Positions 871-16,250 of a stretch of 16,250 nucleotides of DNA are shown one piece after another; positions within the stretch are counted from its first letter, which is position 1; each line of letters opens with the position of its first letter. The notes beneath the pieces are model-generated. The model did not search any database. It was given only the letters and a program-made list of their open reading frames with translations, and was not told where the DNA came from. Source of the DNA: Deltaproteobacteria bacterium (GTDB lineage Bacteria; Myxococcota_A; UBA796; CAJQPC01); NCBI GenBank assembly GCA_016706815.1, contig JADJIW010000040.1, positions 1 to 16,250 of the forward strand. Reading direction: 5' to 3'. A program made the position numbers and the translations under genes.

Positions 871-2404
871 CTACGCGGGCACCCCCGCCGCCACCGTCAA
901 CGCCGGCCGCGGCGACTCCTCCCCGCGCGCCGCCCGCGCCACGGAGTGCGGCGCAAACTCGGCGAACGCCCGCTTGTAGTCGGCGAAGGCGCCCCCCGCG
1001 CGCACCGCGTGCATCACCGCGAGGCCGGTCTGCGCGTCGCCCTGGGCCAACACCGCCTCCACCCAGGCCCAGCGGGCGGAGGTGGCGCGCAGCTCGACGC
1101 GGCCGCGGCTGGGCTTAAACGCCGTCTCCAGGCGCTTGAGGCGGGACTCCACCACCTTCAGGCCCACGAAGCCATCGTTGAGCATGGGCGTGTTGAGCTT
1201 GGGCACGAAGGGCGCCATGCCGATGGCGACGGGGTGGATCGCGCCGAGCTCCAAGGAGAAGCGCACGAGCTCGTCGAGATCGGCGTCGGTCTCGCCGGGC
1301 ACGCCGATCATCATGTAGACCTTGAGCACCTTGTAGCGGTGCTCGGCGGCCTGGCGGGCGCAGTCGATGAGGTGCTGCTCGGTGGTGCCTTTGGACATCT
1401 CCCGGCGTAGGCGCTGGCTCGCGGCGTCTGAGGCCACGGTGAGGGTGCTGTAGCCGCCTTGGCGCAGCAGCTCGGCGATGCGGGGCTTGCGGGCCACACG
1501 GTCGGCGCGCAGGGAGCTGATGCCGACGCCCTTTCCCGGCGGCGATCAGCGCCTCTAAGATGGGCACCAGCTCGGGGTGATCGGAGATCGCCGCGCCGAC
1601 GAGGCCCACCCGGGGGGCGTAGTCGGGGACGAGGGAGAGCACGCGGTCGGCGGTGACCAGGCGCATCCCGCCGTTCGTGCTGCGGCGCATCACGCAGAAG
1701 GTGCACTGGCGATGGCAGCCGCGCTCCCCCTCCAGCAGAAACATGCTGGAGAGCTCGGCGTCGGGGGCGATGATGCGGCTGCGGGCGGGGAGCTCGGCGT
1801 CGGAGGCCTTGGCGATGGTGGGCAGGCGGTCGCCGTCGCGCTCAGGCAGGTAGCCGCCGGGCAGGGCGGCCACGGCGGCGCGTAAGGCGTCCAAGCCGCC
1901 GGAGATCGCGGCCTCGACGGCGGGCACCACCGTCTCTTCAGCCTCGCCCAAGAGCATGGCGTCGACAAACGGCGCGGCGGGGAGCGGGTTCGAGAAGGTG
2001 AGCGGGCCGCCGAGCAGCACCAGCGGGTCGTAGCCCGTGCGATCTTCGCGGCGGGCGGGGATGCCCGCGAGCTCAAAGGCCGTCAGCATCCCGGCCAGCT
2101 CAAGCTCGTAGGCCAAAGACACGCCGATGATGGGGAAGTCCCGCAGCGGGGTCTGCGTCTCGTAGGTGCACAGGGGCAGGCGGGAGCGGCGCCAGGCGTC
2201 TACGTCGTCGGGTAAAAACGCGCGCTCGACGGCGAACCCGGCGCGGGTGAGCAGCTCGTGAATCCACTGGAAGCCAAGGGACGACATGCCCGCGCGGTAC
2301 GGCGAGGGGTAGAGCAGGGCCACGCGCGCCTGACCGGGGGTGAAGCCCGGCCCACGCTCGCGGGCGAGGCGCTCGACGATCGGCTCGTTGTGCTTCCAGG
2401 GCAT
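871..2404 (-). CDS. B12-binding-domain radical SAM enzyme. The reading frame is split by a 1-nt insertion near 1529-1531 (pseudogene or sequencing error).
   Basis: Two ORF-track pieces (1115..2404 and 871..1497, minus strand) form one protein. The N-terminal part has a B12-binding-like region (RVALLYPSPYRAGMSSLGFQWIHELL) and a radical SAM CxxxCxxC motif (GCHRQCTFCVM). After ...ILEALIAAGK the 429-aa frame turns into Arg/Pro junk. The other frame continues with typical radical-SAM core sequence (...RKPRIAELLRQGGYSTLTVASDAASQRLRREMSKGTTEQH...). Removing one C from the CCC run at 1529-1531 joins them as ...AAGKGVGISSLRADRVARKPRIAELL.... The start ATG at 2404 has AGGAAG 5 nt upstream. Confidence 0.8.
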
Positions 2405-2481
2405 AGACTTCCTGCGAGGGGGGATGTACAGGTTATGAAGGTTCGAGCCCGCGCGCCCGCGCCTGTGAGGATTCTCCCCCT
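2405..2481. promoter_or_regulatory. Divergent intergenic region between the radical SAM gene and the secreted-protein gene; presumed promoters
   Basis: A 77-nt gap between divergent starts. GAGGA lies 12 nt before ATG 2482. No clear sigma70 hexamers could be assigned. Confidence 0.3.
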
Positions 2482-3216
2482 ATGCTGTCGTCCCTCGCCG
2501 TGCTGCTCCTGGGTCTAGCCCCCGCTGAGGCCGCGGAGTCCGTCTCCCTCCGTTACCTGCTCGCCGTCGATGGTGAGGTCATCGGGCACCGCGATCTCAA
2601 GATCAACTACCTGCCCACGGACTCCGGCGAGCTGCGGCTCATGGAGTCGTTCACCGAGCTCACCTTCTCCATCGCCGGGCAGCCCTACACCTACAAGCAG
2701 CGCCTCGGCGGCCTGGGCGGCGGCAACTTCAGCTCGGCGATCAGCGACAACGGCACCGGCCGCGAGGTGCAGGCCGTACGATCCAGCCTCGGCTGGACGG
2801 TCACCGTCGCTGAAGGCAAGACGGCGGAGGTCTACGCCTTGGGCCCCGCGGCCTTTGACCTCACCTCCCTCTCCTTGCTCGATCCCGCCGTGGCCGAGAG
2901 CCTCGCCGGGCGCAGCACGCTCAAGGTGCTCGTCGCCGAGACGGGCGGCGTGATGGAGGGCCCCCTTCGCCAGGCCGCCGACGTGCAGATCAAGCTCGGC
3001 GGCCAGATGATCACCTGCGACGAGTACGTCTGGAGCGTGCCCGAGGGTGAGGTCCGCCTGGACTACGGCCCTGAGGGCCACCTGATGCGCTACACCACCC
3101 GGGTCGCGGGCAAGGTCATCACCGCGACGCTGGACCGCCCTCCCCCGCCGCGCACCTACGGCACGACCATGGACGGGCCGCTGATTCAGTCGAGCGTCGG
3201 CGAAGAGACGCTCTAA
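2482..3216 (+). CDS. Secreted hypothetical protein (244 aa) with an N-terminal Sec signal peptide
   Basis: MLSSLAVLLLGLAPAEA|AESV... is a classic signal peptide with an AxA cleavage site. GC3 is high throughout. I recognise no domain. Its stop codon (3214-3216) overlaps the stop of the convergent FAD-subunit gene. Confidence 0.7.
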   Translation: MLSSLAVLLLGLAPAEAAESVSLRYLLAVDGEVIGHRDLKINYLPTDSGELRLMESFTELTFSIAGQPYTYKQRLGGLGGGNFSSAISDNGTGREVQAVRSSLGWTVTVAEGKTAEVYALGPAAFDLTSLSLLDPAVAESLAGRSTLKVLVAETGGVMEGPLRQAADVQIKLGGQMITCDEYVWSVPEGEVRLDYGPEGHLMRYTTRVAGKVITATLDRPPPPRTYGTTMDGPLIQSSVGEETL

Positions 3217-4181
3217 ACGCCGCTGATCGCCGCTTCAAGGGCCCGGCGCACCTCAACCCGCACCATCTTCTTGCGCCAGGGCGCGGGCCAGACATGCGTC
3301 GAGAGCGGGCTCACCTGCTTATACGCGGCCTCGGCCACGGCCTCGACGCCGCCCGCCTCCCAGGCCTCGGCCACGCCGCCCAGCTCCACCGGGCGCGGGC
3401 CCACAGACGAGACGACCACACGGGGGCCCCGATCCGGGTCAAAGGCCGCCGCCGTGAGCAAGAGCGGGTAGTCGATGCTGCCCCGGGCGCGCAGCTTGCG
3501 GTGAACCACACGGCCCGCGGGCGGCGGGGGCAAGATCACGGCGGTGAGCAGCTCATCCGGGGCGCGGCGGATCCAGTCGCGGCCATCGTCGCCATACAGC
3601 GCGGCGACGGCCACCCGGCGGGCGCCCCGCGTAGACACCAGCTCGACCTCGGCGTCATAGAGCAGGAGCCCCGGCGCGGTGTCGGCGGAGTGCGCGGCGT
3701 AACAGCCCTTGCCTTTGGGGGCGACGTGGCAGATCGCCCCCTCGGGCGCGCTGTGGCACTTCAAGCAGCCGCCGAGCGCCCCCCGCCAGAACGTCGACTG
3801 GTTGTACCAGGCGCAGCGGGTGTCGAGCATCAGGTTGCCGCCAAGGGTGCCCATGGCCTGAATCGTAGACGTGGCGATGGTGCGTGTGGCGGCGGCCAAG
3901 GCCGGGTACAGGCTCAACACCCGCACGTCCCGACCCACCGCCCGCAGCGTGACGCCGGCGCCGATGCGTAGGCCGCCCGCCTCGGTGACGGAGATCTCTC
4001 GCAGCGCCGACACCCCACCCAGACGGATGAGCGTCGGCGGGGTGAACAGACCGTACTTCATCGAGGGCAGAAGATCCGTGCCCCCCGCGATGAGCCGGGC
4101 CTGGGGGTGGTCGGTCAGCATCTGCGCGGCGTCGGAGACGGCGCGGGGCGAGAGCACAGAGAAGGTCGGCAGCGGCAGCAT
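3213..4181 (-). CDS. FAD-binding (medium) subunit of a molybdenum hydroxylase (CoxM/XdhB/HcrB-like). Carries a Cys-rich insertion.
   Basis: The N-terminus FSVLSPRAVSDAAQML...LIAGGTDLL matches the FAD_binding_5 family start (AGGT motif). It sits 3 nt downstream of the Mo-subunit stop. Residues ~123-160 (nt ~3702-3815) form a C-x15-C-x2-C-x8-C-x8-C insertion. Confidence 0.85.
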   Translation of the reverse strand: MLPLPTFSVLSPRAVSDAAQMLTDHPQARLIAGGTDLLPSMKYGLFTPPTLIRLGGVSALREISVTEAGGLRIGAGVTLRAVGRDVRVLSLYPALAAATRTIATSTIQAMGTLGGNLMLDTRCAWYNQSTFWRGALGGCLKCHSAPEGAICHVAPKGKGCYAAHSADTAPGLLLYDAEVELVSTRGARRVAVAALYGDDGRDWIRRAPDELLTAVILPPPPAGRVVHRKLRARGSIDYPLLLTAAAFDPDRGPRVVVSSVGPRPVELGGVAEAWEAGGVEAVAEAAYKQVSPLSTHVWPAPWRKKMVRVEVRRALEAAISGV

Positions 4182-4184
4182 AGC

Positions 4185-6503
4185 TCAGGCTCCGTCAAAG
4201 GAGGCGCGGCGGGCCTCACGGTCGCGGCGCTCGATGGCCTTGAGCACACGGTCGGGGGTGAACGGCGCCTCGTTCATCCACACGCCGCAGGCGTCAAAGA
4301 TGGCGTTGGCGATGGCGGGCACCGTGGAGAGCTGGGGGCCCTCCCCGGCCTCTTTGGCGCCGAAGGGGCCCTCCTTGTCGTTGGACTCGACGATGATCGT
4401 GATGATCTCCGGCGTCTCAAACACCGTGGGGATCTTGTACTCCAAGATCGACGGCGCCCGGTGCAGACCGTGTTTGGTGTAGCTCTGCTCCTCAGCCAGG
4501 GCCTCGCCCACGCCCATGTACACGCAGCCCTCGATCTGGCCCTCCACGATGGTGGGGTTTAAGGCCTTGCCGCAGTCGTGCGCCGCCCAGATGCGCTCGA
4601 CGGTGACGAAGCCCGTCTCCGGGTCTACCACCACCTCGGCCACCTGGGCGGTGAACGAGTACGCCGGAGACGGCCCGACGGACTGGCGGCGGAAGCGGTT
4701 GCCGATCTTCGGGGGCTTGTAGTGCCCCACAAAGCCTAAGGTGCCGTGGCGCTCTTCAGCGAGCTGCACGGCCTCGGCAAAATCGAGGGCCTTCTCTGGC
4801 GCAGACTCGCGGAACACCTTCCCGCCAACCATCACCACGTCCTCGCCGCCGAGCTTCTCCGCCGCCGCTGCCCGCATCACCGCGTAGAGCTGATCCGCGG
4901 CCATCTTGGCGGCGTTGCCCGCGAAGAAGGTCACTCGCGAGGAGTACGAGCCCAGGTCTACGGGCGTGAGCCCGGTGTCGGCCTCCAACACCACACAGTC
5001 GGTCTCGGGGATGCCCAGGCGCCCGGCGACGATGGCCGCGAGCATGTGGTTAGAGCCCTGGCCGATGTCGGCGGTGCCCGAGAGGATCGACACCCGCCCC
5101 GAGCGGTCGGCGCAGATCTGCACGGCGCTCTGGGGCATCTCCGACTGCACGATCGGGTGCAGGGCCCCGCACATATACGCCGAGGTGGCCAGGCCGATGC
5201 CCCGGTTGGGGCCGAGCTTGCCGCGCTTCTCCAAGTACCCCGAGGCGGCGAGCACCTTGTCGACACACTCTTTGAGCGCGACGGACGTGATGCGCAGGCC
5301 GTTGGAGGTCTCTGTGTCGGGCTCCACACAGTTCTTGAGGCGCAGGGCGTCGGGGCTCATGCCGATGGCGTTCGCGAGCTTGTCGAGGTGAAGCTCTAAG
5401 GCGAAGCGCGGCTGAATCGCGCCGTGGCCTCGTTTGGGGCCGCAGGGCGGGTGGTTTGTGTAGCAGCGGTGGCTCTCAAACTGCCAGTGATCGAGCTTGT
5501 ACGGCAGCGGCAAGAACACGCCGAAGTAGTACGCCGTGACCACGCCGTAGCTGGCGTAGGCCCCGCCCGCGGCCCAGGCCTTAAAGTCGGCGGCGGTGAT
5601 GCGCCCGTCGTTGGTGACGCCCATCTTCAGGGTCATCCGTGTGGGGTGACGGCCTCGGTGGGCATAAAACACCTCCTCACGGTCTAGGATAAACTTCACC
5701 GGGCGGCCGGTCTTTCGCGCCAAGGCCGCCGCGCACAGCTCGTTGGCGAAGGGGTCGGACTTGCCGCCATAACCCGCGCCCACATCGGGCTTGATCACCC
5801 GCACGTCCTGCTCACGCATCCCCAGCACCTTGGACACGATGCGGTGCAGGTAATGGGGGATCTGTGTAGACGACCAGAGGGTGAGCTTGCCGTCTGGGTG
5901 GGGTTGGGCCAGGGCGACCTGGGTCTCCAGGGGCACATGGGTGGAGCCGGGGTAGTCGTAATTCGACTCGATGATCACATCGGCCTCGGCGAACCCGGCG
6001 GCGGGGTCACCGTATTTCTGGAACACCCGGCGTAAGACGTTTGTGTCGCCTTTGCGGCGGCGCTCGTCATGCAGGAGCGGCTTGTCGGGGTTCAGCGCGT
6101 CCTCGATGGTGAACACGCCCTCTAGGGGCTCGTACTCCACACGGATGAGCGCGGCGGCGCGGCGGGCCGTCTCTTGATCCACGGCGGCCACGGCGGCGAC
6201 CTCGTCCCCGATGAACAAGACCTTGCCCACGGCCAAGGCGTGCTCGTCCTGGGCGACGGGGATGACGCCATACGGCGTGGGGAGATCGGCCCCGGTGAGC
6301 ACGGCGTAGACCCCGGGCAGGGCCAAGGCGGCGCTCACGTCGATGCTCAAGATTCGGGCGTGGGCGTGGGGCGAGCGGTTGAAGGCCCCGTGCAGCATCC
6401 CGGGCAAGGTGAGGTCGTCGGTGAAGCGGGCGGCGCCGGTGATCTTGGGCAAGCCGTCGATCTTGCCGCCGCGACGGCCAACAGGCGAATCAGGCTCGCT
6501 CAT
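4185..6503 (-). CDS. Molybdopterin-binding large subunit of a xanthine dehydrogenase/aldehyde oxidase/CO dehydrogenase-family enzyme (772 aa)
   Basis: N-terminus ...GKIDGLPKITGAARFTDDL..., an internal GAGYGGK motif, and an overall length and pattern typical of the Ald_Xan_dh_C/C2 families. The start ATG (6501-6503) overlaps the small-subunit stop (ATGA). Confidence 0.9.
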   Translation of the reverse strand: MSEPDSPVGRRGGKIDGLPKITGAARFTDDLTLPGMLHGAFNRSPHAHARILSIDVSAALALPGVYAVLTGADLPTPYGVIPVAQDEHALAVGKVLFIGDEVAAVAAVDQETARRAAALIRVEYEPLEGVFTIEDALNPDKPLLHDERRRKGDTNVLRRVFQKYGDPAAGFAEADVIIESNYDYPGSTHVPLETQVALAQPHPDGKLTLWSSTQIPHYLHRIVSKVLGMREQDVRVIKPDVGAGYGGKSDPFANELCAAALARKTGRPVKFILDREEVFYAHRGRHPTRMTLKMGVTNDGRITAADFKAWAAGGAYASYGVVTAYYFGVFLPLPYKLDHWQFESHRCYTNHPPCGPKRGHGAIQPRFALELHLDKLANAIGMSPDALRLKNCVEPDTETSNGLRITSVALKECVDKVLAASGYLEKRGKLGPNRGIGLATSAYMCGALHPIVQSEMPQSAVQICADRSGRVSILSGTADIGQGSNHMLAAIVAGRLGIPETDCVVLEADTGLTPVDLGSYSSRVTFFAGNAAKMAADQLYAVMRAAAAEKLGGEDVVMVGGKVFRESAPEKALDFAEAVQLAEERHGTLGFVGHYKPPKIGNRFRRQSVGPSPAYSFTAQVAEVVVDPETGFVTVERIWAAHDCGKALNPTIVEGQIEGCVYMGVGEALAEEQSYTKHGLHRAPSILEYKIPTVFETPEIITIIVESNDKEGPFGAKEAGEGPQLSTVPAIANAIFDACGVWMNEAPFTPDRVLKAIERRDREARRASFDGA

Positions 6504-7015
6504 GTGGACCTCCCGTTCATCCGCTCGCGGGCCTGGCGGGCGGCGGCGAGGATCTTCGTGTAGCCCGTGCAGCGGCAGATGTTGGCGCCGAGCACCTCGT
6601 TGAGCTCGGCGTCGGTCGGGTCGGGCCGCTCGTCAAACAGGGCCTTGAGCGCCATGACAAAGCCCGGCGTGCAATACCCACACTGGGCGGCGACCTGCTC
6701 GTGGAACGCGGCCTGGATGGGGTGCAGCGCGCCGCCGACGGCCACACCCTCGACGGTGAGCAGCTCGGCGTCCTGAGCCTCGGCGGCCAGGGTGATGCAC
6801 GAGAGCCGCGGCGCGCCGTTCACCAAGACCGTACACGCGCCGCAGTCGCCGACGTCGCAGCCGTGCTTGGAGCCGGTGAGGCCGAGGTCTTGGCGCAGGA
6901 GGTTGAGGAGCGTGCGGTTCGCGGGGATCAACAGGCGTCTGCGGTCGCCGTTGACCCTCAGCGTGAGGACCAGATCGTCATCGGGCTCGGTGGGCATGGC
7001 CGCCACTATAACCAA
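6500..7015 (-). CDS. [2Fe-2S]-binding small subunit of the molybdenum hydroxylase (CoxS/HcrC-like)
   Basis: Plant-type ferredoxin motif (GCDVGDCGACTV) plus the second 2Fe-2S motif (CGYCTPG...ICRCTGY). The start is either TTG at 7013-7015 or ATG at 6995-6997; neither has a strong RBS, so the start is uncertain. Confidence 0.85.
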   Translation of the reverse strand: MVIVAAMPTEPDDDLVLTLRVNGDRRRLLIPANRTLLNLLRQDLGLTGSKHGCDVGDCGACTVLVNGAPRLSCITLAAEAQDAELLTVEGVAVGGALHPIQAAFHEQVAAQCGYCTPGFVMALKALFDERPDPTDAELNEVLGANICRCTGYTKILAAARQARERMNGRST

Positions 7016-7030
7016 CGCCGCCGGGGGCGG

Positions 7031-9257
7031 TCAGACGCGCTGGGCGCCTCGGGCGCGGCGCAGGCGATCGGACTCCCCTTCAGCGCGGCGGGCGGCGCGC
7101 ACCTCGTCCTCCAAGCGGCGCAGAGCCTCTCCGGCGGCGGAGACCCGGTCTTGCTCGCCGATCAGCTCTTGGCGGGCTTTGCGCGCGGCGCCGCCGATGT
7201 CGAGGAGCCGCGCCGCCGTGGCCGTGAGCTTGGACTCCCAGCGGGCGTGCTCCTCTAAGGTGGCCTCGCGGTCGGCCTTGGCGGCGAGGAGCTCCGGGCG
7301 CTCGGTGGGGTCGGGGCGCTGACCGGCCTGCTCCATCGTCTCGAGACGGCGGATGCGGGCCTCGATCTGGGCGAGGTCTTGGGCGATGGCCTCGGGGCGC
7401 AGCTCTTTGAGGCGACCATCCAGGCGATCGGCCTCGGCGGCCAGGTCAGCGGCCTCGGCGCGCAGCTCGACGACGGTGCGGCGTAGGTCGGCCTCGGCGG
7501 GGGTGGGCAGCTCGGCCTGGCCGATCGCCAGCTCCAAGGCGGCGAGGGACTCCTCAACCCGGGCGAGGAGCTGGCCGCCGCGGGTCTTGGGCGCAGGCGG
7601 CGCGACCACCGGGGCGGCGACGTTCGGCGGCGCAGGGGCGGCGGCGGCAGGTTCAGCGGCGGCGGCGCCGCGCTCCACACGCACCTGGGGGCGGCTGGCG
7701 AGCAGCTCGGGCAGACGCTCGGGGGTGACGTGGGCGCGCAGGTCGCGGCCATAGGCCAAGGGCACCTTGTCGGCGTTGCGCCCGGCGTTGGAGGCGGTCA
7801 CCATCACGACGACGGAGATGAGGATCATCACCGGGAGCGCCGCCATGGCCGAGCCGAAGGTGAGCCCCACGGCGATGGCCCACAACACCCACATCGGCCC
7901 GAGCAGGTTGGGCAAGGTCCGCATCACGCGGTTCACCCGGCCGTCTTCGTCTTCAGCCCGGCGGCGTTTTTTGGCGACGAAGCCCCGGCTCTCGGCCAAG
8001 GCGGCGAGGTTATCGACGGTGTCTTCGCTCACGCCGGAGACGAGGCGGAAGCGGCGCTGGTCGAGCACGGGGCTCACCAACAGGGCGTCGATGGGCAGCC
8101 CCGCCCGCAGCGCGACGCCGCGGGCGAGGAGCTCGGCGTCGGTGATCTCCGTGGACTCCGCCGTCCACTCTTCAGGGAGCTTGGGCAGGCCGAGCTGCAC
8201 CACCACCTTGTTGATCGCCTCGGCGGCGTAGCGGGCGCTCGTCTTGCCCGCCCGGGCGCTGCGCCGGGCTTGCCTGCGGCTGGCTTGGCTGGAGTGGCGC
8301 AGCTCCAGCTCAAAGCGGCCTTCAGGCAAGGCCAACGGCGCGGGCTCTAAGGTGTAGCTGGGCTGGGGTGGCGGCGGCGGCGGGGGCTCGTCTTTGGGCG
8401 GCGCGCGGCGGTTCTGAGCCCGCGGCGGCGGGGCGACGATGCGCCCACGAAGGGCCTCGGCGACCTCAGCGGCGCCTTGGGGGCGCTCGTCTGGGGAGAG
8501 GCGCAAGAGCGCGTGGATGATGGCGCAGAGGTCGTCCGGCAGCTCCGGGCGCAGGCTGGCGAGGGGCTCGACCTCGCCGGAGAGCTGGCGTTTGAGCACG
8601 GCGGCGGCGTTGGGCCCGGCGAAGGGCGCCCGGCCCTGAAGCGGCGTAATACAGCACCGTGCCCAAGGAGTAGAGGTCGCTGCGGGGGTCGGCGCGCTCG
8701 CCGTCGTAGACCTCGGGGGCGGCGTGCCCGGCGGTGCCCAAGGCCCCGGTGTGCCGGGTGGACTGCCACTGCTCTAGCCGGGCGAGGCCAAAGTCGGTGA
8801 GCGTCGCCACGCCCGCGTCGTCGATCATCACGTTCGCCGGGGTGATGTCGCGGTGCAGCACGCCGGCGCGGTGGGCGGCGGCGAGCACGTCGGCCAGCCG
8901 CGCGCCGATGGCCCGCAGCGCCGTGCCGCCGATGGGGCCTTCAGCGGCCACCCGCTCGGAGAGGGTGCGGCCCGGGTGGTAGGGCATCGACAAGGCGAGG
9001 TGGCCGTCGAGCTCGTGCAGCTCTTGGGCGAGGAGCGCGCCCTCATGTTTGATGAGCCCCGCCGTCATCACCTCGCGGCGCAGGCGCTCCCGGGTGGAGG
9101 CGTCGCCGACGAGGTGGGCGTGGAGGATCTTGAGGGCGACCCGGGCGCCGCGCACCCGATCTTCAGCGAGCCAGACCGTCGCCATGCCCCCACGGCCCAG
9201 CTCACCGATGAGCGTGAACCGCTCACCGAGCACCGCGCCCCGGGCCAAGGCGCTCAA
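7031..9257 (-). CDS. Hanks-type Ser/Thr protein kinase (about 740 aa). Kinase domain, Pro-rich linker, two-helix TM hairpin, long C-terminal coiled-coil. The frame is split by a 1-nt insertion near 8631-8634.
   Basis: The N-terminal piece (8466..9257) has the Gly-loop GELGRGGMATVW, VALK, HRDITPANV, DFG and APE. After DLYSLGTVLYYAASG the frame degenerates. The downstream piece (7031..8599) continues the kinase C-lobe (...AVLKRQLSGEVEP...IIHALLRLSPDERP). Deleting one base in CCCGGCCC at ~8631-8634 restores ...YYAASGRAPFAGPNAAAVLKRQL.... The TM hairpin is LGPMWVLWAIAVGLTFGSAMAALPVMILISVVVMV. The C-terminal 200 aa are heptad-like and Ala/Glu/Arg/Leu-rich. The start is TTG at 9255-9257 with a weak RBS. 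Confidence 0.8.
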
Positions 9258-9333
9258 CCGCGCACCGGAGGCACCCGACCCGAGCTTGTCTGACGCGCCG
9301 CTTCAGTCACTGAGCACTTCCCTCCCCTGCTCC

Positions 9334-10155
9334 CTATTGTGGGGTGGCCGCCGCTGGCAAACCTTTCCCCAAACGGGCCATGGTGACCCACGCGGCGACG
9401 TCATCGACCTCCCAAGAGTTGTCGGACCCACGCCAGAGCAGGCGGCCGTCACCGTCGAGCACCAGGATGTGCAGGCTGTGGAGGATGTCGCCTTGGCTCT
9501 CGACCCGGCTGGCCCCGGCGCGTAACAACAGCGTCTTGAGCGCGTCGAGCTCTAAGCGGGCGAAGGTCCACGTTGCGGGGTTCGCGCCGCGCTCGGCGCC
9601 GTAGGCCTTGAGCACCTCCAGAGAGTCCCGGGCGGGGTCTAGGGTGACGCTCACGATGCGCCCGTGGTCCAGCTCCCCTTGAAGCTCCTTGAGCTTGCTC
9701 GCCAACAAGGGGCAGGCCTCGGGCATGGGGCAAGACGTGAACAAGAAGGTGAGCACCGTCGGCACGCCTTGGCCCGCGCCGATGAGCACCGGGCCGTCCA
9801 CGCCGGGCATCGTGAGCGCCGGGAGCTGCTCGCCTTCGGCCAGGGCGATCACCGCGTCGGGGGCCAGGGCCAGGGGCTCCTCGTGGCCGGTGACCTTGGC
9901 GCCGATGATCCGCACCGTGCCGTCTTCAGCGGTCATCAGGTTCGCCTGGATGAGATCCCCAGGGCGAAGCTGCCGGGCGAGGTTGGGATCGACGACGAAG
10001 GTGGTGGCGCCCTCCTCAAAGGCGCCGGGCACGGGACCGTGCTCCAGCCGCACGCTGTGCTGGCCGACGTCGCGCACCACGCCGTTGACGGAGTAGGTGT
10101 CTCCAGCGACAAAGTTACAGCCGGCCAGAGCGAAGACGGCGATGAGCCCGCGCAT
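9334..10155 (-). CDS. Lipoprotein with an N-terminal CusF-like small beta-barrel domain fused to an SCO1/SenC-like thioredoxin-fold domain
   Basis: ATG at 10153-10155 is preceded by GGAGG 8 nt upstream (the ORF-track start at 10164 is GTG). The lipobox is MRGLIAVFALAG|C. The SCO-family pattern is FLFTSCPMPEACP, ...VTLDPARDS...LKAY..., and a conserved His in ILHSLHILVLDGDGRLL. The N-domain (GVVRDVGQHSVRLEHGPVPG...LRPGDLIQANL) resembles CusF-type metallochaperone folds. Confidence 0.7.
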   Translation of the reverse strand: MRGLIAVFALAGCNFVAGDTYSVNGVVRDVGQHSVRLEHGPVPGAFEEGATTFVVDPNLARQLRPGDLIQANLMTAEDGTVRIIGAKVTGHEEPLALAPDAVIALAEGEQLPALTMPGVDGPVLIGAGQGVPTVLTFLFTSCPMPEACPLLASKLKELQGELDHGRIVSVTLDPARDSLEVLKAYGAERGANPATWTFARLELDALKTLLLRAGASRVESQGDILHSLHILVLDGDGRLLWRGSDNSWEVDDVAAWVTMARLGKGLPAAATPQ

Positions 10156-10239
10156 CAGAGGCACCTCCTGAGGTTGGCAAGCCTATTCACGCGGGCGCGC
10201 CGCGTCGACGGGGCGTCGTGTCGCGGGTAAACTCCTCAG

Positions 10240-10461
10240 ATGCCCGAGTCTCCCGAGATCCCCGCCTCTTTGCCACGACGCGCCCTGCGGCGGGCGGGCA
10301 GAGCCGCGCTCAAGGCTCTGGGCGGCGCGGTGTATTACGCGATCTACCGCGAGCTGCCGAACCCCAACGATCCCGACCCCTACTGGCGTGAGATGCACCC
10401 CGACCAAGACAAAGGCACGGGGCGCCAAGGTGGGGACTTTGAGCCCCCGCCGGGGATCTGA
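10240..10461 (+). CDS. Small hypothetical protein (73 aa)
   Basis: An ORF with genome-typical high GC3 and non-junk composition (ALKALGGAVYYAIYRELPNPNDPDPYWREMHPDQDKG). No SD motif; no homology recognised. Confidence 0.35.
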   Translation: MPESPEIPASLPRRALRRAGRAALKALGGAVYYAIYRELPNPNDPDPYWREMHPDQDKGTGRQGGDFEPPPGI

Positions 10462-10545
10462 GGTCAACGCTGATGCTCGCCGCCGCTGCTGTGGATCGGG
10501 CTCACCGCCTTCGCCCAAGACCCTGGGCCCCTCGTCGGCGACCTC

Positions 10546-12345
10546 TTGGGGCCGATGCCCCCGGCCACGACGCTTCGGGATGTAGACGTTCACCCGGAGT
10601 ACATCCGGCTGCGCTTCACCACCGACCGCGACTTCATCGTTGAGCTGACCCCAAGCCGTGACGGCGCCTCGCCGGTGTGCAGCGGCGGCGGCGCCGATCT
10701 GTACGTGCGCCTCGACCTCGACGCCGATCAAGAGAGCTTCGACTGGGAGCCCCTGCCGCCCATCGTCGATCAGCTCTGCGCCCGGATGGTGGACCACCCG
10801 CCGCGGTTCCCGACCTCGGAGAAGGTGTTGGCCCCCGTCGCGCCGCCGCCCGCTCCCGAGCGCCCGGCGCTGCCGTTTCGACCGATGCACGTCGTCGGCG
10901 TCCTCTGGGCCGTGGCGGTCCTCGCCGCCCTGCCGCGGGCGCCCTTGGCCTGGGGGGTGGGCCTTCTCGCGCTCTTGATCCGCCTGGGGCTCTCCCCGCG
11001 CTGGATCCTCGTCGGCGGCGACGCGGCCTATGAGCGCCTGCTCGACGCGAGGGGGCGCGGCGACTCAAACCCCTACTACGGCGACGGCTGGCAGGGGTTG
11101 ATGGGCCTCGTGTACACGCTCCTGGGCGAGCCCAAGACGACGGACTGGGTTCACCTCACGAACCTCGGCTTCTCGGCCTTGACCGTGGTGGCGCTCGTGG
11201 GGCTGATCTCGGCCTTGGGGGGCAGCCCCCTCGCCGCGGGCCTCGCCGGGCTCGCCCTGGCCGCGGCCCCGCTGCCGGTGCGGCTGGCGGCCACAGAGAC
11301 CGACTTTGTGCTCGTCGGGCTCGTGCAGGTGCTCGCGCTCTACGGCGCGGCGCGTGGGGATCGCCGCGGGGCGGCCCTCGCGGCGCTCTCTGTGGGCCTC
11401 TCCGTTCACCTGCGGCCCCTGGGCGGCGCCTTCGCGCTTCTGCCCTTGGGCATGCTCGCCTGGCGGCGCTCGGCCTGGGCCGTCGTGTTGGGCCTGGGGC
11501 TCTGCGCCTGGCGCGCGGTGGAGCTGCTGCCGCTCGTGCGGGAGGGCAGCGGCGTGGGGGTCATCCCCTTCGGTCGGCTTCTGGAGACGGACTTCTGGGT
11601 CAAGCGCCTCAACCCCTTGGGCCGCGCCCCAGCGCTGCACCTCAGCCCCTTGTGGTCGCCGTTCGCGTTGCCGCTCCTCGCCGTGGCCGCGGTGCAGCTC
11701 TCCAAGCCCGAGACCCGCCGCGTTTGGATCTGGCCTTTGGGCTTGGGCGTCGTGCTCAGCGAGCTGCCGTACCTGCCGAAGACCTCTCCGCTAGGCGATC
11801 CCCTGCGGTTTTTGCTCCCGGCGACGGCGATGTGGGCGGGGCTCGCGGGGTTTGGCGCGGCCTTGGCCTGGGAGGGCGGCGCCAAGGCCCGCCTGGTCCT
11901 GGCGGTGGCGGCCCTGAGCTTCGTCCCCCCATGGCTCTCAGGCCAGCCGCGCTGGACGTGGCAGGTTGAGCACCTGGCCTTCGTCGAGGCCACCCGGCTC
12001 GCCCCCGAAGGCGCCGAGGTGCTCTTTGACCCGGCCTTTGACGAGAACGGCAAGATCAGGATGTGGCTCAACACCCGGGGCGGGGCGCGGTGGCGGCCTT
12101 GGGCGCTGGGAGAGACCCCCGCCGAGGGCGCCTTTGTTTACCTCGGCAGCGCCGATCACCACCGGCGTTTAGCGGCCGGCGGCGCCGGGCCGAGCTTGGC
12201 CCAAGGCTGCGCGCTCACGCCGCTGACCACGATGGACCTGCCGCCCGAGACCGACGGCTGGATTGAGCTCGGCGACGCGCCGATCCCCGCCGGGCTCTAC
12301 CGCGTCGACGCCTGCGGCCAGGGCTCAGGCTCCCCAAACCCCTGA
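10546..12345 (+). CDS. Large polytopic integral membrane protein (at least 9 predicted TM helices) with N- and C-terminal soluble domains. Function unknown; a GT-C-like glycosyltransferase topology is possible.
   Basis: High GC3 over 1.8 kb. Multiple hydrophobic stretches (VVGVLWAVAVLAAL, WGVGLLALLIRLGL, FSALTVVALVGLISALG, LAGLALAAAPL, FVLVGLVQVLALYGA, AALSVGLSV, WAVVLGLGLCAW, FALPLLAVAAV, IWPLGLGVVLS, MWAGLAGFGAALA, LVLAVAALSFV). The start is uncertain: TTG 10546, ATG 10555, or a frameshifted upstream ATG at 10476. Confidence 0.7.
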   Translation: MGPMPPATTLRDVDVHPEYIRLRFTTDRDFIVELTPSRDGASPVCSGGGADLYVRLDLDADQESFDWEPLPPIVDQLCARMVDHPPRFPTSEKVLAPVAPPPAPERPALPFRPMHVVGVLWAVAVLAALPRAPLAWGVGLLALLIRLGLSPRWILVGGDAAYERLLDARGRGDSNPYYGDGWQGLMGLVYTLLGEPKTTDWVHLTNLGFSALTVVALVGLISALGGSPLAAGLAGLALAAAPLPVRLAATETDFVLVGLVQVLALYGAARGDRRGAALAALSVGLSVHLRPLGGAFALLPLGMLAWRRSAWAVVLGLGLCAWRAVELLPLVREGSGVGVIPFGRLLETDFWVKRLNPLGRAPALHLSPLWSPFALPLLAVAAVQLSKPETRRVWIWPLGLGVVLSELPYLPKTSPLGDPLRFLLPATAMWAGLAGFGAALAWEGGAKARLVLAVAALSFVPPWLSGQPRWTWQVEHLAFVEATRLAPEGAEVLFDPAFDENGKIRMWLNTRGGARWRPWALGETPAEGAFVYLGSADHHRRLAAGGAGPSLAQGCALTPLTTMDLPPETDGWIELGDAPIPAGLYRVDACGQGSGSPNP

Positions 12346-12495
12346 CAGGGATCCGCCTGCCGTCGGGATCTGCGCGAAGTGGGGAGCGAGGCCTGAGCGG
12401 GCCCGCCAAGGCGGACAAAGATTGGCGTTTCTTCAGGCGAGAATGATCCGAACCGATGAGGCGCGTTGTCCTCTGAGGTGAACGGAGGTGCCCCC

Positions 12496-12597
12496 ATGTC
12501 TGAATGGAGAGATCGTCTGCTGCGCTGGCTCGACGGGCTGCTCTTTTTCCCCGAGCCAGAGCCCGCCCGCGTTGAGGCCCGGCGGCGCCGTCGATGA
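12496..12597 (+). CDS. 33-codon upstream ORF (MSEWRDRLLRWLDGLLFFPEPEPARVEARRRRR), translationally coupled to the next gene
   Basis: GGAGG lies 7 nt upstream of the ATG. The stop TGA (12595-12597) overlaps ATG 12594 of the downstream gene (ATGA). The first codons use rare low-GC codons (TCT GAA AGA GAT). The ORF is below the ORF-track size cutoff. Confidence 0.3.
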   Translation: MSEWRDRLLRWLDGLLFFPEPEPARVEARRRRR

Positions 12598-13154
12598 ACC
12601 CTGCCTCGCGTGCTCGCGCAAGGGTCGCGCGGGTGACCGCCGCCCCCCACGACCCGCCCCTGCCCCGCCACTTCCACCGCATCGAGGCCCGGGGCCATGT
12701 GGTGTACTGCCTGAGCCCCTTGGCCCCCGCGGAGCTCGTCCAGGCCGGGGGGCTGCCCCGGGAGGCGATCCTCGGCGTCACCGACCGCGACGTCGGGGAC
12801 TGGGCTTGGGGCCTTCGCCCAAACCAGCTCTTCATGGACCTCTTGACCCGCCTGCTCACCGAGCACGCGGAGCTTGAGCCGACGCTCACCCAGGCCGCCT
12901 TGGCGCTGCGGGTGGGCGTGCTGGAGCTCTGGGACGGCCGCGTCGGCTTCTCCCAGCGCGGTGAAGAGGATCTGCTCGGCTGCTTTCAGGTGCGTGAGGG
13001 TCGGCTGATGCCGCGCTCGTTCAACCCCAACCGGAGCTACACCTTGGTGACCGAGCGAGGCGCCATGCGGCTGCCCGCGCGACTTCAGGCGGCTCTGCTC
13101 GCCGAGCTGCGGTCGCTGCGGGTCTTGTGGCCTGGGCCCTCGACGACGCTCTGA
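12594..13154 (+). CDS. Hypothetical protein (186 aa)
   Basis: GC3 is high across the ORF. The overlapping antisense 292-aa ORF is Arg/Gly/Pro low-complexity. No domain recognised. Confidence 0.55.
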   Translation: MNPASRARARVARVTAAPHDPPLPRHFHRIEARGHVVYCLSPLAPAELVQAGGLPREAILGVTDRDVGDWAWGLRPNQLFMDLLTRLLTEHAELEPTLTQAALALRVGVLELWDGRVGFSQRGEEDLLGCFQVREGRLMPRSFNPNRSYTLVTERGAMRLPARLQAALLAELRSLRVLWPGPSTTL

Positions 13155-13207
13155 GGCCACCGCGCCGAGGGTCATTTGCGCGGCGTCGGGTTTCCCCGGC
13201 GTCGCGC

Positions 13208-14161
13208 TCAGGACTCTGGGGCGTCGCTGCCGTTGTGGACGTTCACGATGGTGAGCTGCTCGACGGCGATGCGCACCTGGCCGCTGAGGCGGCGGCGCTC
13301 AAACAGCCGCGCCGCGCCCTCGATGCCCGCTTGGGCCACCTGCTCTCGGGCGCGGAAGAGGTGCAGGGTGAGCAGGCCGGGCTCTAAGGACAACATCCGC
13401 GAGAGCTCATCGGCGTAACGCCAGCCCACCTCCGCGGGGCGAACCCCGGCGGCGAGATCCTCGAGCCGCGCCCGGGCCAAGGCCAAGGTCACGAGGTGAT
13501 GCACCCGAGAGCTGAGCACGATGGCGCCGCCCCGGTGCTTGATCTCCACATCGACGTGCTCTTGGTCCTGGCTCACGCGCAGGGTGAGGGCGATGGTCTC
13601 TAAGCGTGGGCGCAGAGACGTGTCCCAGGTGGTCGGCAGCTCAGCGCTTCGCGGCGCGACGGGCAAGATGAGGCGCCAAGACTCGTCTCCTAAGACGAGG
13701 CGCTGGCCATCGAGCGCCTCGGACTCCAGGCCCTCGTGCTCGACGATCCAGTGGCCGTCGTTGCCTTCGTAGACGATGGCGAGCATCCCGTCGGCGCTGG
13801 GCAGGCTGAGGATCTCGGCCTCCGACACCCGCAGGAGCTGATCGGCCTCTCGGACCGCCGCCGCGCCTGGGGGGCCGTCGTGGGCGAGCACGAAGCCGCG
13901 GTGGGGGCCGAAGCGCACGCTGACGCCGGCGCTGAGCCCGCGACCGCGGCCGCTCTCCAGGCGCTCGCCGTCTACAAAAGTGCCGTTTCGACTGCCCAGA
14001 TCACGCAGTTGCCACTCTTTGCCGGTCCAGCGTAAAGCGGCGTGCTCAGCGCTGATCTGGCGATCGTCGATGCGCACGGCGCAGTGGGCGGCGCGGCCGA
14101 TGAGCGTGCGCGCGCCGAGGGCGATCAGGGCGTGGTCGTCGTCGGATCGGAGAATTCCCAT
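13208..14161 (-). CDS. FHA (forkhead-associated) domain protein, 317 aa, with an uncharacterised ~200-aa C-terminal region
   Basis: The N-terminal FHA signature is LIGRAAHCAVRIDDRQISAEHAALRWTGKEWQLRDLGSRNGTFVDGERL (GR...S..HA...DLGS.NGT.V.G). Confidence 0.8.
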   Translation of the reverse strand: MGILRSDDDHALIALGARTLIGRAAHCAVRIDDRQISAEHAALRWTGKEWQLRDLGSRNGTFVDGERLESGRGRGLSAGVSVRFGPHRGFVLAHDGPPGAAAVREADQLLRVSEAEILSLPSADGMLAIVYEGNDGHWIVEHEGLESEALDGQRLVLGDESWRLILPVAPRSAELPTTWDTSLRPRLETIALTLRVSQDQEHVDVEIKHRGGAIVLSSRVHHLVTLALARARLEDLAAGVRPAEVGWRYADELSRMLSLEPGLLTLHLFRAREQVAQAGIEGAARLFERRRLSGQVRIAVEQLTIVNVHNGSDAPES

Positions 14162-14348
14162 AGGCGGGAACGTAGCACGCTAGGTCACTCTGAACGCCCC
14201 CAACAGACGCCCTTGAGGGCCTGAACCAATCAAAGTCCGCACGATACCCGCCGAAATCAATTGAAAGAGAGGCGGCGAAGCGCCTGATCTATGCTGCGCT
14301 AGGTTCGCGCGGCGCGTGACCCTGCGACCCCCTCACGGAGAATGACTG
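14162..14348. promoter_or_regulatory. Divergent promoter region between the FHA gene and the caspase-like gene
   Basis: A 187-nt intergenic region with locally reduced GC (AACCAATCAAAGTCCGCACGATACCCGCCGAAATCAATTGAAAGAGAGG), containing TTGAAA-like and TTGAGG-like -35 candidates. GGAGA lies 7-8 nt before ATG 14349. Confidence 0.35.
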
Positions 14349-15821
14349 ATGTCCGGCAACACCTATGTGGTCCTGATTGGTGTCAACGAGTACCCCAAGC
14401 TTGGGGCGGGCGCCTCGCTCAAGGGCTCCTGCAACGACATGCGCCACTGGCTCCGCTTCGCCCGGGTGAGCCTCGGGGTGCCCGGCGAGCAGGTTCAGCT
14501 CCTCACCCACCCGGCCCTTGAGGGCGAAGACGTGCGGCTGCCCAAGGGCCACCACCGCGGCGCGAGCTTGGCCGAGGCGAACGGGGCGATCGACGCCCTC
14601 ATCCATTGGCTGCAAGAGAACCCCACGGGCACCGGGCTCATCGTGTACTCCGGCCACGGCGGCCACATCAACCCCGGCGACGACCCCAACGCCACGGACT
14701 TTGACGGCGACCGCCTCGCCTTGGGCCTCAGCGACGCGGAGATCACCGACGGCACCCTCCGCGGCGCCCTCGTCGTTCAGCAGCTTGACCTGCGCCTCGC
14801 CGCCTTGGGCTTGAACGAGCGCGTGACCTTGGTGATCGACGCCTGCTATGGCGACCTCAACGTGCAGCGTTTTGACCGGGAGCTGATCACCGCCGAGCCC
14901 CAGCCCGACGCCACGACCGGCCTGCGGGTGCTGCTCTCCACCGCCGTCGGCGCGGCCAGCTACGAGGCCTACATCGCCGGTCAGTGGCAGAGCGCCTACT
15001 CCTTCGCGCTCCTCACCTTGCTCAGCCAGTGGGGCAACGCCCAGGTGGGCGGCGTTCACATCGTCCGGGCGAGCCACCGCGAGCTGACCTTCCGGGCGCG
15101 TGAGCTGCTCAACGTGCTCGGCTACACCGACCAGGCCCCGGCCTTCGCGGGGGCGGCGCGGGCCCTGGACGCCCCGTTCAACAACCCGTCGATCTTTGAG
15201 GTGCCGGTGAGGCCCTCGTGGGTGCCGGACGGCAACCGGAAGATCAAGGAGCTGGGCGGGGACGCTGACGACCTGGGCGTGTGGACGTTGAAGACCGGCA
15301 GCACCATCCTCGCGACGGGGCTGGTGAACAACTCCGGCGCGGCGGTGAGCTTCAACGGCGGCGGCTCGACCATCCAGAACGGCAAGGCGATGTGGTACCT
15401 CCGCAGCACCGGGGCGCCGCAGAGCTTCAGCAGCCTCACGATGGAGTGGCTGGCGCAGACCGCCAGCGGCGGATCGATCTCGTGGAACGTGCCCTCCAAC
15501 CTCACCTATGCCGAGACCGAGGACTACGCGCCGTCGATGACGACGATCACCACGGCCCCGGCGGGCACCTCCTTCGGCAACTTCAGCATCATCGACGGCA
15601 ACAGCGACCCCAAGAGCATGTGGGTGTCCGTCGAGGTGACCTCCAACGGCGCGGGCAGCTACAAGGTCAACACCCTCTCGTTCACCGCGACGAGCAGCGT
15701 CACGCCCTACCAGGTCACCCCGTTGCCCCCGCCCGGCTCAAGCTCGGGGAGCTGGACCAAGAACCAGTCCAACATCCCCTTCACCGTCGGCGTGACCTAC
15801 TCCTCCAACACCCTCGGCTGA
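14349..15821 (+). CDS. Caspase-like cysteine peptidase (C14 family) with a ~210-aa uncharacterised C-terminal domain; no signal peptide
   Basis: YVVLIGVNEYPKLGAGASLKGSCNDM...GTGLIVYSGHGGH (catalytic His) ...RVTLVIDACYGD (catalytic Cys) match the caspase/metacaspase His-Cys dyad fold. The C-terminal residues ~280-490 are Ser/Thr/Asn/Gly-rich with Trp residues every ~30-45 aa (W312, W349, W379, W425, W469). Confidence 0.85.
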   Translation: MSGNTYVVLIGVNEYPKLGAGASLKGSCNDMRHWLRFARVSLGVPGEQVQLLTHPALEGEDVRLPKGHHRGASLAEANGAIDALIHWLQENPTGTGLIVYSGHGGHINPGDDPNATDFDGDRLALGLSDAEITDGTLRGALVVQQLDLRLAALGLNERVTLVIDACYGDLNVQRFDRELITAEPQPDATTGLRVLLSTAVGAASYEAYIAGQWQSAYSFALLTLLSQWGNAQVGGVHIVRASHRELTFRARELLNVLGYTDQAPAFAGAARALDAPFNNPSIFEVPVRPSWVPDGNRKIKELGGDADDLGVWTLKTGSTILATGLVNNSGAAVSFNGGGSTIQNGKAMWYLRSTGAPQSFSSLTMEWLAQTASGGSISWNVPSNLTYAETEDYAPSMTTITTAPAGTSFGNFSIIDGNSDPKSMWVSVEVTSNGAGSYKVNTLSFTATSSVTPYQVTPLPPPGSSSGSWTKNQSNIPFTVGVTYSSNTLG

Positions 15822-16250
15822 GGAACGGGCCACACCACCCGCAGCCCCATCGTTAAAAAATGGCGCTCTGGGGTGCTTCCGAAGCGGGTGGCGAGGCGCT
15901 GGGTCATCGGGGGGGAGCCATAAAAGCCCCCTCGCACCGCGCGGTGGGTGCCCGCCTCTGGGATATCCACCGCTCGCCCAGCCTGAACTGGCCCTCGCAC
16001 CGACCACCAGTTGCGACACCACGTTCGAGCGTTTCCAGCGAGGTCACGCACGCCGTAGGGCTCTCGTCACCCTCCACAGCCCCCAAAGGAAGCATACCGG
16101 GTGGTGAGGGTGAAGAGCCAAGCACCCGCGACCAGCGCGGCTCTATCTCCCGGCCCCAAGGGGTGAATCGCCCATCCACACCTCGCCCGGCCTTCTCGAT
16201 CTCAAGCTCGTTGGGCAGGTGTCCGCCCATCCAAGCGGCGGCGCGCGCGG
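15797..16250 (-). CDS. C-terminal part of an FGE-sulfatase (SUMF1/formylglycine-generating-enzyme-like) domain protein. Partial (start beyond the window). The frame is broken by a 1-nt deletion near 16060-16075.
   Basis: Two minus-strand ORF pieces carry consecutive FGE-family motifs: HLPNELEIEKAGRGVDGRFTPWG (compare LPTEAEWEYAARG...YPWG) in one frame, and PYGVRDLAGNARTWCRNWW...HRAVRGGFYGSPPMTQRLATRFG...MGLRVV (compare GLYDMAGNVWEW...RVVRGGSW...GFRVV) in the other. Stop at 15797-15799. Confidence 0.6.

Follow-up and report, generated by a model that had tools for sequence, protein, structure and literature searches.

The stretch of DNA studied here, called the window, is the 16,250 nucleotides at positions 1 to 16,250 of contig JADJIW010000040.1 (assembly GCA_016706815.1), and position numbers refer to it unless another locus is named. 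In NCBI its proteins carry the accessions MBK7758417 to MBK7758427 and the locus tag IPN01_; the contig, of 80,250 bp, was deposited as 'MAG: Deltaproteobacteria bacterium', where MAG stands for metagenome-assembled genome, and the genome is that of an uncultured Myxococcota (class UBA796, MiDAS species midas_s_814) from activated sludge. The G+C content of the window is 70%, and the G+C content of third codon positions (GC3) clearly traces its genes; the gene order was also taken from Pfam scans and from relatives. The window holds genes for a radical SAM enzyme, a molybdenum hydroxylase of three subunits, a Ser/Thr kinase, several other proteins, and the end of a gene in which a kinase is fused to an FGE-sulfatase domain (Table 1). 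The radical SAM gene, the kinase gene and the kinase-FGE gene are each interrupted by a single break of the reading frame. These breaks, and whether they belong to the organism or to its assembly, are the subject of this work.

A first-pass annotation, made from the sequence alone, had reported three frameshifts with motifs that continue across each break, and all three are present as it described them. Using a GC3 frame plot, we found phase jumps at about 1500, 8620 and 16000, each without an intergenic gap. The pairs of overlapping open reading frames (ORFs) at the breaks each carry one Pfam domain in two parts. We repaired the frames by deleting one base at 1535, deleting one base at 8634 and inserting a G after 16060. 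This gave proteins of 510 and 741 amino acids and a continuous C-terminal FGE piece of 150 amino acids. After repair, the Pfam scan matched each domain as one stretch and with a higher score than the fragments. In every broken gene there is a single lesion, and no further stop occurs. Runs of at least 3 bases make up 17% of the window, and the probability that all three indels fall in such runs by chance is about 0.005. The window also contains 65 runs of at least 5 bases; none of these is hit by an indel, and all appear correct.

To compare the broken sites with those of relatives, we gathered comparators by exact-protein look-up, by scans of genome and metagenome contig collections and by further look-ups. 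Two of them are MAG contigs very close to the window: L001 (JADJYZ010000037, from Lyne_18-Q3-R50-59_MAXAC.002; 98.4% identity) and L002 (JADKFE010000010, from Rand_18-Q3-R56-63_MAXAC.001, which has CANU-style 'tig' contig names; 98.5%). L003 is a SPAdes-named MAG contig (91.6%), L004 and L005 belong to MAG.235 (82-88%), and L082 is a JGI metagenome contig (97.4%). The remaining comparators are the SPAdes-named ENA contigs L162, L163 and L164, the JGI contigs L165, L166 and L168, and the MEGAHIT-named ENA contig L169. The window is identical to none of the fetched loci. The comparison with orthologous sequences, which the first-pass annotation had proposed as a check, showed that the window alone has the indel at each of the three sites: it is found in 0 of 8 comparators at site 1, 0 of 8 at site 2 and 0 of 4 at site 3. 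In the alignment of the window with L169 the named indel is the sole gap over 3.4 kb at 98.0% identity, and the same is true for L162/L163 over 3.6 kb at 97.7% identity. Because the indels at the three named sites are absent from every comparator, we read the breaks as sequencing or assembly errors and not as gene loss.

Table 1. Genes of the window and the three sites of frame breakage (aa, amino acids; nt, nucleotides)
Feature	Positions	Strand	Remarks
PIN-domain toxin ORF	50-586	minus	
Small ORF upstream of the PIN ORF	583-864	minus	
Radical SAM gene	871-2404	minus	Radical_SAM_N2 and Radical_SAM core; 510 aa when repaired; split into ORFs 1115-2404 and 871-1497
Site 1	1529-1537		One extra base: CCCTTTCCC, 9 nt versus 8 nt in 8 of 8 comparators (L001-L004, L165, L166, L168, L169)
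DUF6134-like gene	2482-3216	plus	
Molybdenum hydroxylase, FAD-binding subunit	3213-4181	minus	
Molybdenum hydroxylase, MoCo (molybdenum cofactor)-binding subunit	4185-6503	minus	
Molybdenum hydroxylase, 2Fe-2S subunit	6500-7015	minus	
Ser/Thr kinase gene	7031-9257	minus	741 aa when repaired; split into ORFs 8466-9257 and 7031-8599
Site 2	8634-8636		One extra C: CCC versus CC in L001, L002, L003, L005, L082, L162, L163 and L164
SCO1/SenC-CusF protein	9334-10164	minus	
63-aa ORF and 624-aa membrane protein	10270-12345	plus	
Membrane protein gene	10473-12345	plus	624 aa in L001
173-aa protein	12633-13154	plus	
FHA protein	13208-14161	minus	
Caspase-family protein	14349-15821	plus	
C-terminal FGE-sulfatase domain of the kinase-FGE fusion	15797-16250	minus	790 aa in L001; gene continues past the window end
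Site 3	16058-16060		One base missing: GGG versus GGGG (L001, L002, L005) or CGGG (L003)

The two closest MAGs have private breaks of their own, and these lie in other places. L002 has four, at the window-equivalent positions 1726 (C5 to C4, in the radical SAM gene), 14737 (caspase gene) and 16125 (FGE gene) and at the N-terminus of the membrane protein (10476-10488); its caspase is split in GenBank into proteins of 146 and 373 amino acids. L001 has one, in the SCO1/SenC gene at window-equivalent 9573 (L001 6929-6933). L003, L004, L005 and L082 gave single-frame tblastn matches for every orthologous gene, L003 and L005 also for the FGE gene, and the genes called on L162-L164, L166, L168 and L169 are full length. 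A seeming break of L003 in the FAD-binding subunit is only apparent; it is a scaffold gap of 10 N and not a frameshift. Counted per private substitution, there are 9 frame breaks to 154 substitutions in the three long-read MAGs and 0 to 1168 in L003 (Fisher p = 5e-9).

We also determined the codon positions of the substitutions that are private to the window. In the repaired frames, 9 of 9 in the radical SAM gene and 5 of 5 in the kinase gene are at position 3. Since all 14 stand at third codon positions, selection acted on intact genes. Downstream of the three breaks 11 of 12 private substitutions are at position 3 (p = 5e-5 if the positions are equally likely). On this pattern, real lesions would postdate nearly all substitutions of the strain itself.

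At site 1, in the radical SAM gene, the first-pass annotation had placed an extra C at 1529-1531. One extra base is indeed there, and this placement is one of several equivalent ones within 1529-1537, so that the run of CCCTTTCCC that holds the base is not decidable. The window reads G-CCCTTTCCC-GG. The 8-nt forms of the relatives are CCCTTTCC, CCTTTTCC or CCCTTCCC: L001 and L003 have (C/T)TTTCC, L002 and L004 have CCCTTCCC, and L165, L166, L168 and L169 have CCTTTTCC. The split ORFs match positions 5-76 and 91-165 of the Radical_SAM profile. The repaired protein matches PF04055 at 5-165 of 166 with 66 bits and the N-terminal PF19864 with 108.8 bits, and the motif CHRQCTFC is present. It is 99% identical to the intact protein P0169 of 511 amino acids. 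More than 5000 radical SAM homologs (E<=1e-80) of about 490-510 amino acids cover 93-99% of it.

At site 2, in the kinase gene, an extra base had been reported at about 8631-8634, and we confirmed it as the additional C of the run at 8634-8636. The kinase fragment matches Pkinase at 2-198 and the remainder is missing; after repair, PF00069 is matched at 2-254 of 263 with 120.9 bits, continuously through subdomains IX-XI. The repaired protein consists of a kinase domain, a proline-rich linker, a transmembrane segment and a coiled-coil tail. Full-length homologs of about 700-740 amino acids were found, and the architecture recurs at that size. The intact kinase P0161, encoded on L162/L163, is 99.86% identical to the repaired kinase of the window, with 1 of 717 residues differing. 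In GenBank the gene is represented by the fragment MBK7758421.1 of 263 amino acids. This fragment forms a singleton cluster among about 15 billion proteins, and the neighbouring intact protein is found on 15 contigs. The GenBank accessions are consecutive from the 2Fe-2S subunit to this fragment, and judging from the numbering the 1.4 kb at 7031-8465, which encode the C-terminal part of the kinase, seemingly have no coding sequence. In the proline-rich linker (8364-8384) the length varies in frame by 3-9 bp among strains (L001, L082), which is an ordinary repeat-tract polymorphism.

At site 3, in the kinase-FGE gene, a missing base had been reported near 16060-16075. The comparison bears this out: the run at 16058-16060 has three bases, and all 4 relatives have four. 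The two FGE fragments match the FGE-sulfatase profile at 105-142 and 175-255 (19 and 39.4 bits), and the repaired piece matches PF03781 continuously at 105-255 of 255 with 59.8 bits. The intact comparator P0289 reads through the site uninterrupted as DESPYGVRDLAGN. A search with the repaired piece returned two proteins only, the window's own mis-called fragment and P0289, and no sequence of the same strain. GenBank has the window's fragment as a 'SUMF1/EgtB/PvdO family' protein of 123 amino acids, whose tail PTACVTSLETLERGV... is the frameshifted reading. The first-pass annotation had expected automated gene calling to turn the broken genes into fragments; in kind, this is what the 263-aa kinase and the 123-aa FGE protein with its frameshifted tail are. 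The latter (P0290) begins at an internal methionine, only 123 amino acids from the end of a gene that encodes 790 in L001. The kinase-FGE gene is probably broken a second time upstream, beyond the end of the window (>16250).

The surroundings of site 3 have a further peculiarity. The tract at 15950-16150 is about 25% divergent from L001 and L002, versus about 1.5% elsewhere, and the differences are mostly at third codon positions. By its divergence the tract looks like a recombined or mosaic allele. A diversity-generating retroelement was considered for it and rejected, since the differences fall mostly at third codon positions and are not adenine-directed, and since the window contains no template-repeat-like copy.

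A fourth break had been tentatively suggested at the N-terminus of the membrane protein, and the comparison supports it. The conserved reading LWIGLTAFAQ begins at 10489, in another frame than the ATG at 10473-10475; the length difference lies within 10476-10488. The N-terminus is in frame in L001, L003, L005 and L164 and out of frame in the window and L002. Thus judged from the alignment, the membrane protein gene is probably the fourth broken gene.

The origin of the assembly is relevant to these observations. L001 and L002 are sister MAGs of the activated-sludge set of Singleton et al. 2021 (Myxococcota, class UBA796, midas_s_814), and the accessions of the window stand next to theirs in the same submission series. 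The third MAG of the species, Ejby_18-Q3-R6-50_BAT3C.362, has an apparent coverage of about 20x and 12x, versus 32x and 30x for Lyne. Going by elimination and by the order of the accessions, the genome of the window probably belongs to the Singleton set and probably comes from the Ejby MAG, the one with the lowest coverage. The pipeline of this set used CANU on Nanopore reads, Racon, two rounds of medaka and then one round of Racon with Illumina reads (PMC8012365). Thus a long-read-only assembly, which the first-pass annotation had raised, does not agree with the pipeline of the sister MAGs. Indels in Nanopore consensus sequences shift reading frames and break up gene calls, and bins of low coverage rely on polishing with short reads (PMC9262707).

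We regard residual consensus errors in a lightly polished, long-read-based MAG, rather than mutations of the organism, as the highly probable cause of the frame breaks. The first-pass annotation had preferred indel errors to three inactivations within 16 kb, and this preference is supported by the private indels, the breaks in the sister MAGs and the codon-position pattern. It had also described them as homopolymer errors; an indel artefact is indeed favoured, but the affected runs are 2-4 bases and not classic long homopolymers. Assemblies of this kind may retain one-base length errors in short runs of G/C or T, and are likeliest to do so at low short-read coverage or where co-existing strains differ beside the run. 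Each error would shift the frame of an otherwise intact and selected gene, and gene callers would then emit truncated fragments with nonsense tails, or make no call. The true genes would be those of a 510-aa radical SAM enzyme, a 741-aa membrane-anchored Ser/Thr kinase, a kinase-FGE-sulfatase fusion of about 790 amino acids and a 624-aa membrane protein.

The breaks resemble the known indel errors of Nanopore consensus sequences (IDEEL test; Sereika et al. 2022, PMC9262707) in being one-base indels in mononucleotide runs that are private to one assembly and split conserved genes, with a similar density in sister MAGs of the same pipeline and none in short-read-style assemblies. Unlike in the typical case, the affected runs are of 2-4 and not of at least 5 bases. 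The pipeline, moreover, had an Illumina polishing step, so that these look more like errors that polishing left behind or introduced, and strain mixture may contribute.

Several points weigh against residual errors as the explanation. The case for an artefact is circumstantial. The Illumina polishing round should remove most one-base errors. With short runs affected and 65 longer ones apparently correct, the pattern is not the textbook one of long homopolymers. The membership of the window in the Singleton set, and especially its assignment to Ejby, rest on the accession series and on elimination. The short-read status of the comparison contigs was deduced from their SPAdes- or MEGAHIT-style names and not from platform records. 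Finally, no comparator has the exact local haplotype of the window, which leaves a small probability to a very recent strain-private mutation at each site.

It is conceivable, though we hold it only tentatively, that the errors arose as a consensus of mixed strains. In this sub-type of artefact, the consensus or the polisher records both alleles of a synonymous single-nucleotide polymorphism beside a short run, or leaves the polymorphic base out, and the errors mark strain-variable positions rather than being random noise of basecalling. Site 1 fits this description best. TTTCC (L001) and TTCCC (L002) are synonymous alleles within the species, and the TTTCCC of the window is the union of both, which a mixed-strain consensus would be expected to yield. 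At site 2 the coding strand is TCA-GGCC or TCG-GGCC in relatives and TCAGGGCC in the window. The base missing at site 3 is the polymorphic third position of a proline codon (GGGG versus CGGG), and the break of L001 at 9573 is a hybrid of GTTGC and TGGGC alleles. That sites 2 and 3 and L001 9573 fall at positions variable among relatives hints at a strain-mixture artefact and is not statistically secure. At 2-18% divergence, polymorphism of third codon positions is common, which makes a coincidence plausible, and for sites 2 and 3 the only documented carrier of the second allele is L003, which belongs to another species-level lineage.

Genuine and very recent frameshifts are an unlikely alternative to consensus errors. 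The genes would then be nascent pseudogenes, fixed or frequent in the binned strain, for example in a mutator lineage deficient in mismatch repair. The indels stand in the deposited record and are annotated as such, the Illumina round left them in place, short runs are less typical of Nanopore homopolymer error, and the identical strain is not among the comparators. True frameshift pseudogenes likewise have an ORF interrupted by a one-base indel, with homology recognisable on both sides. Unlike them, the genes of the window have no second lesion, they keep the codon-position bias downstream of the break, and the break is not common to any relative. The third-position bias (14 of 14 in two genes, 11 of 12 downstream of the breaks) gives no sign of relaxed selection, and the radical SAM family is highly conserved. 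The density is also far above that expected of pseudogenes in a large free-living genome, as 4 of about 14 genes would be broken in 16 kb of a genome of 8 Mb. Private breaks are equally dense in two sister MAGs of the same pipeline, where they hit different genes, and assemblies of short-read style have none. The singleton status of the kinase fragment, beside an intact neighbour on 15 contigs, speaks in the same direction. The stronger proposal, that real indels mark a mutator or otherwise indel-prone strain of an abundant wastewater Myxococcota, is less probable still; the breaks of the sister MAGs would then be real too. In such a strain two signalling kinases, a conserved radical SAM enzyme and a membrane protein would just have been inactivated. 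Were the breaks real, genes would be inactivated unusually fast for a free-living bacterium, and the evidence is against this.

Programmed ribosomal frameshifting or phase variation, by which full-length proteins would still be made or be switched on and off, is extremely improbable and was rejected for want of conservation, for the mixed directions, for the lack of a correctly phased motif and for the shortness of the runs. Its only support is that the breaks lie in short mononucleotide runs and that the coding strand of site 1, GGGAAAGGG, is loosely slippery-like. As at the programmed sites of prfB (+1) and dnaX (-1), one protein is encoded by two overlapping frames. Unlike at those sites, the shift is conserved in no ortholog: programmed sites are conserved, and every ortholog, at 80-99% identity, is a single uninterrupted ORF that can be read without a shift. 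The directions are mixed, two sites being +1 and one -1, and GGG AAA G fits -1 slippage neither in phase nor in direction. An Rfam scan of the window found nothing, and hence no frameshift element. Phase-variable contingency loci typically have a simple-sequence tract of at least 7 mononucleotides; the runs of 3 bases in the window, 2 or 4 in relatives, are too short for slippage of that kind.

Under the preferred reading, that of residual consensus errors, the feature is with high probability an assembly artefact with annotation consequences and not a biological system, and its biological interest is low. Its main value lies in quality control. A public 'high-quality' MAG holds mis-annotated fragments, and some of its coding sequence apparently has no call at all. 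In large databases such errors give rise to singleton protein clusters; they also deflate inferences on gene content and pathways and can pass for pseudogenisation or phase variation. Long homopolymers are not a prerequisite for frame-breaking errors in long-read-derived MAGs, and these errors are found and mended when the MAG is set against short-read contigs of its species.

Some minor differences were seen elsewhere in the window. The region at 1-866, with the PIN ORF and the small ORF upstream of it, has no counterpart in L001, L002 and L003, whose homology ends at 866/867. The JGI contig L168 has the same arrangement of radical SAM gene, 86-aa ORF and PIN ORF as the window. Since the PIN region is absent from L001-L003 and present in L168, the region downstream of the radical SAM gene varies among strains. 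The PIN ORF encodes 178 amino acids in the window and 144 in L168, and within 141-160 the window has AAA at 151-153 where L168 has AA, which removes the TGA stop of L168. This AAA may be a fifth indel error, an insecure call from an alignment that ends 12 bp away. At 13192, between the gene of the 173-aa protein and the FHA gene, there is an intergenic one-base difference with no coding effect: the window has GGGTTTCCCC, and L001 and L002 have GGGTTCTCCCC.

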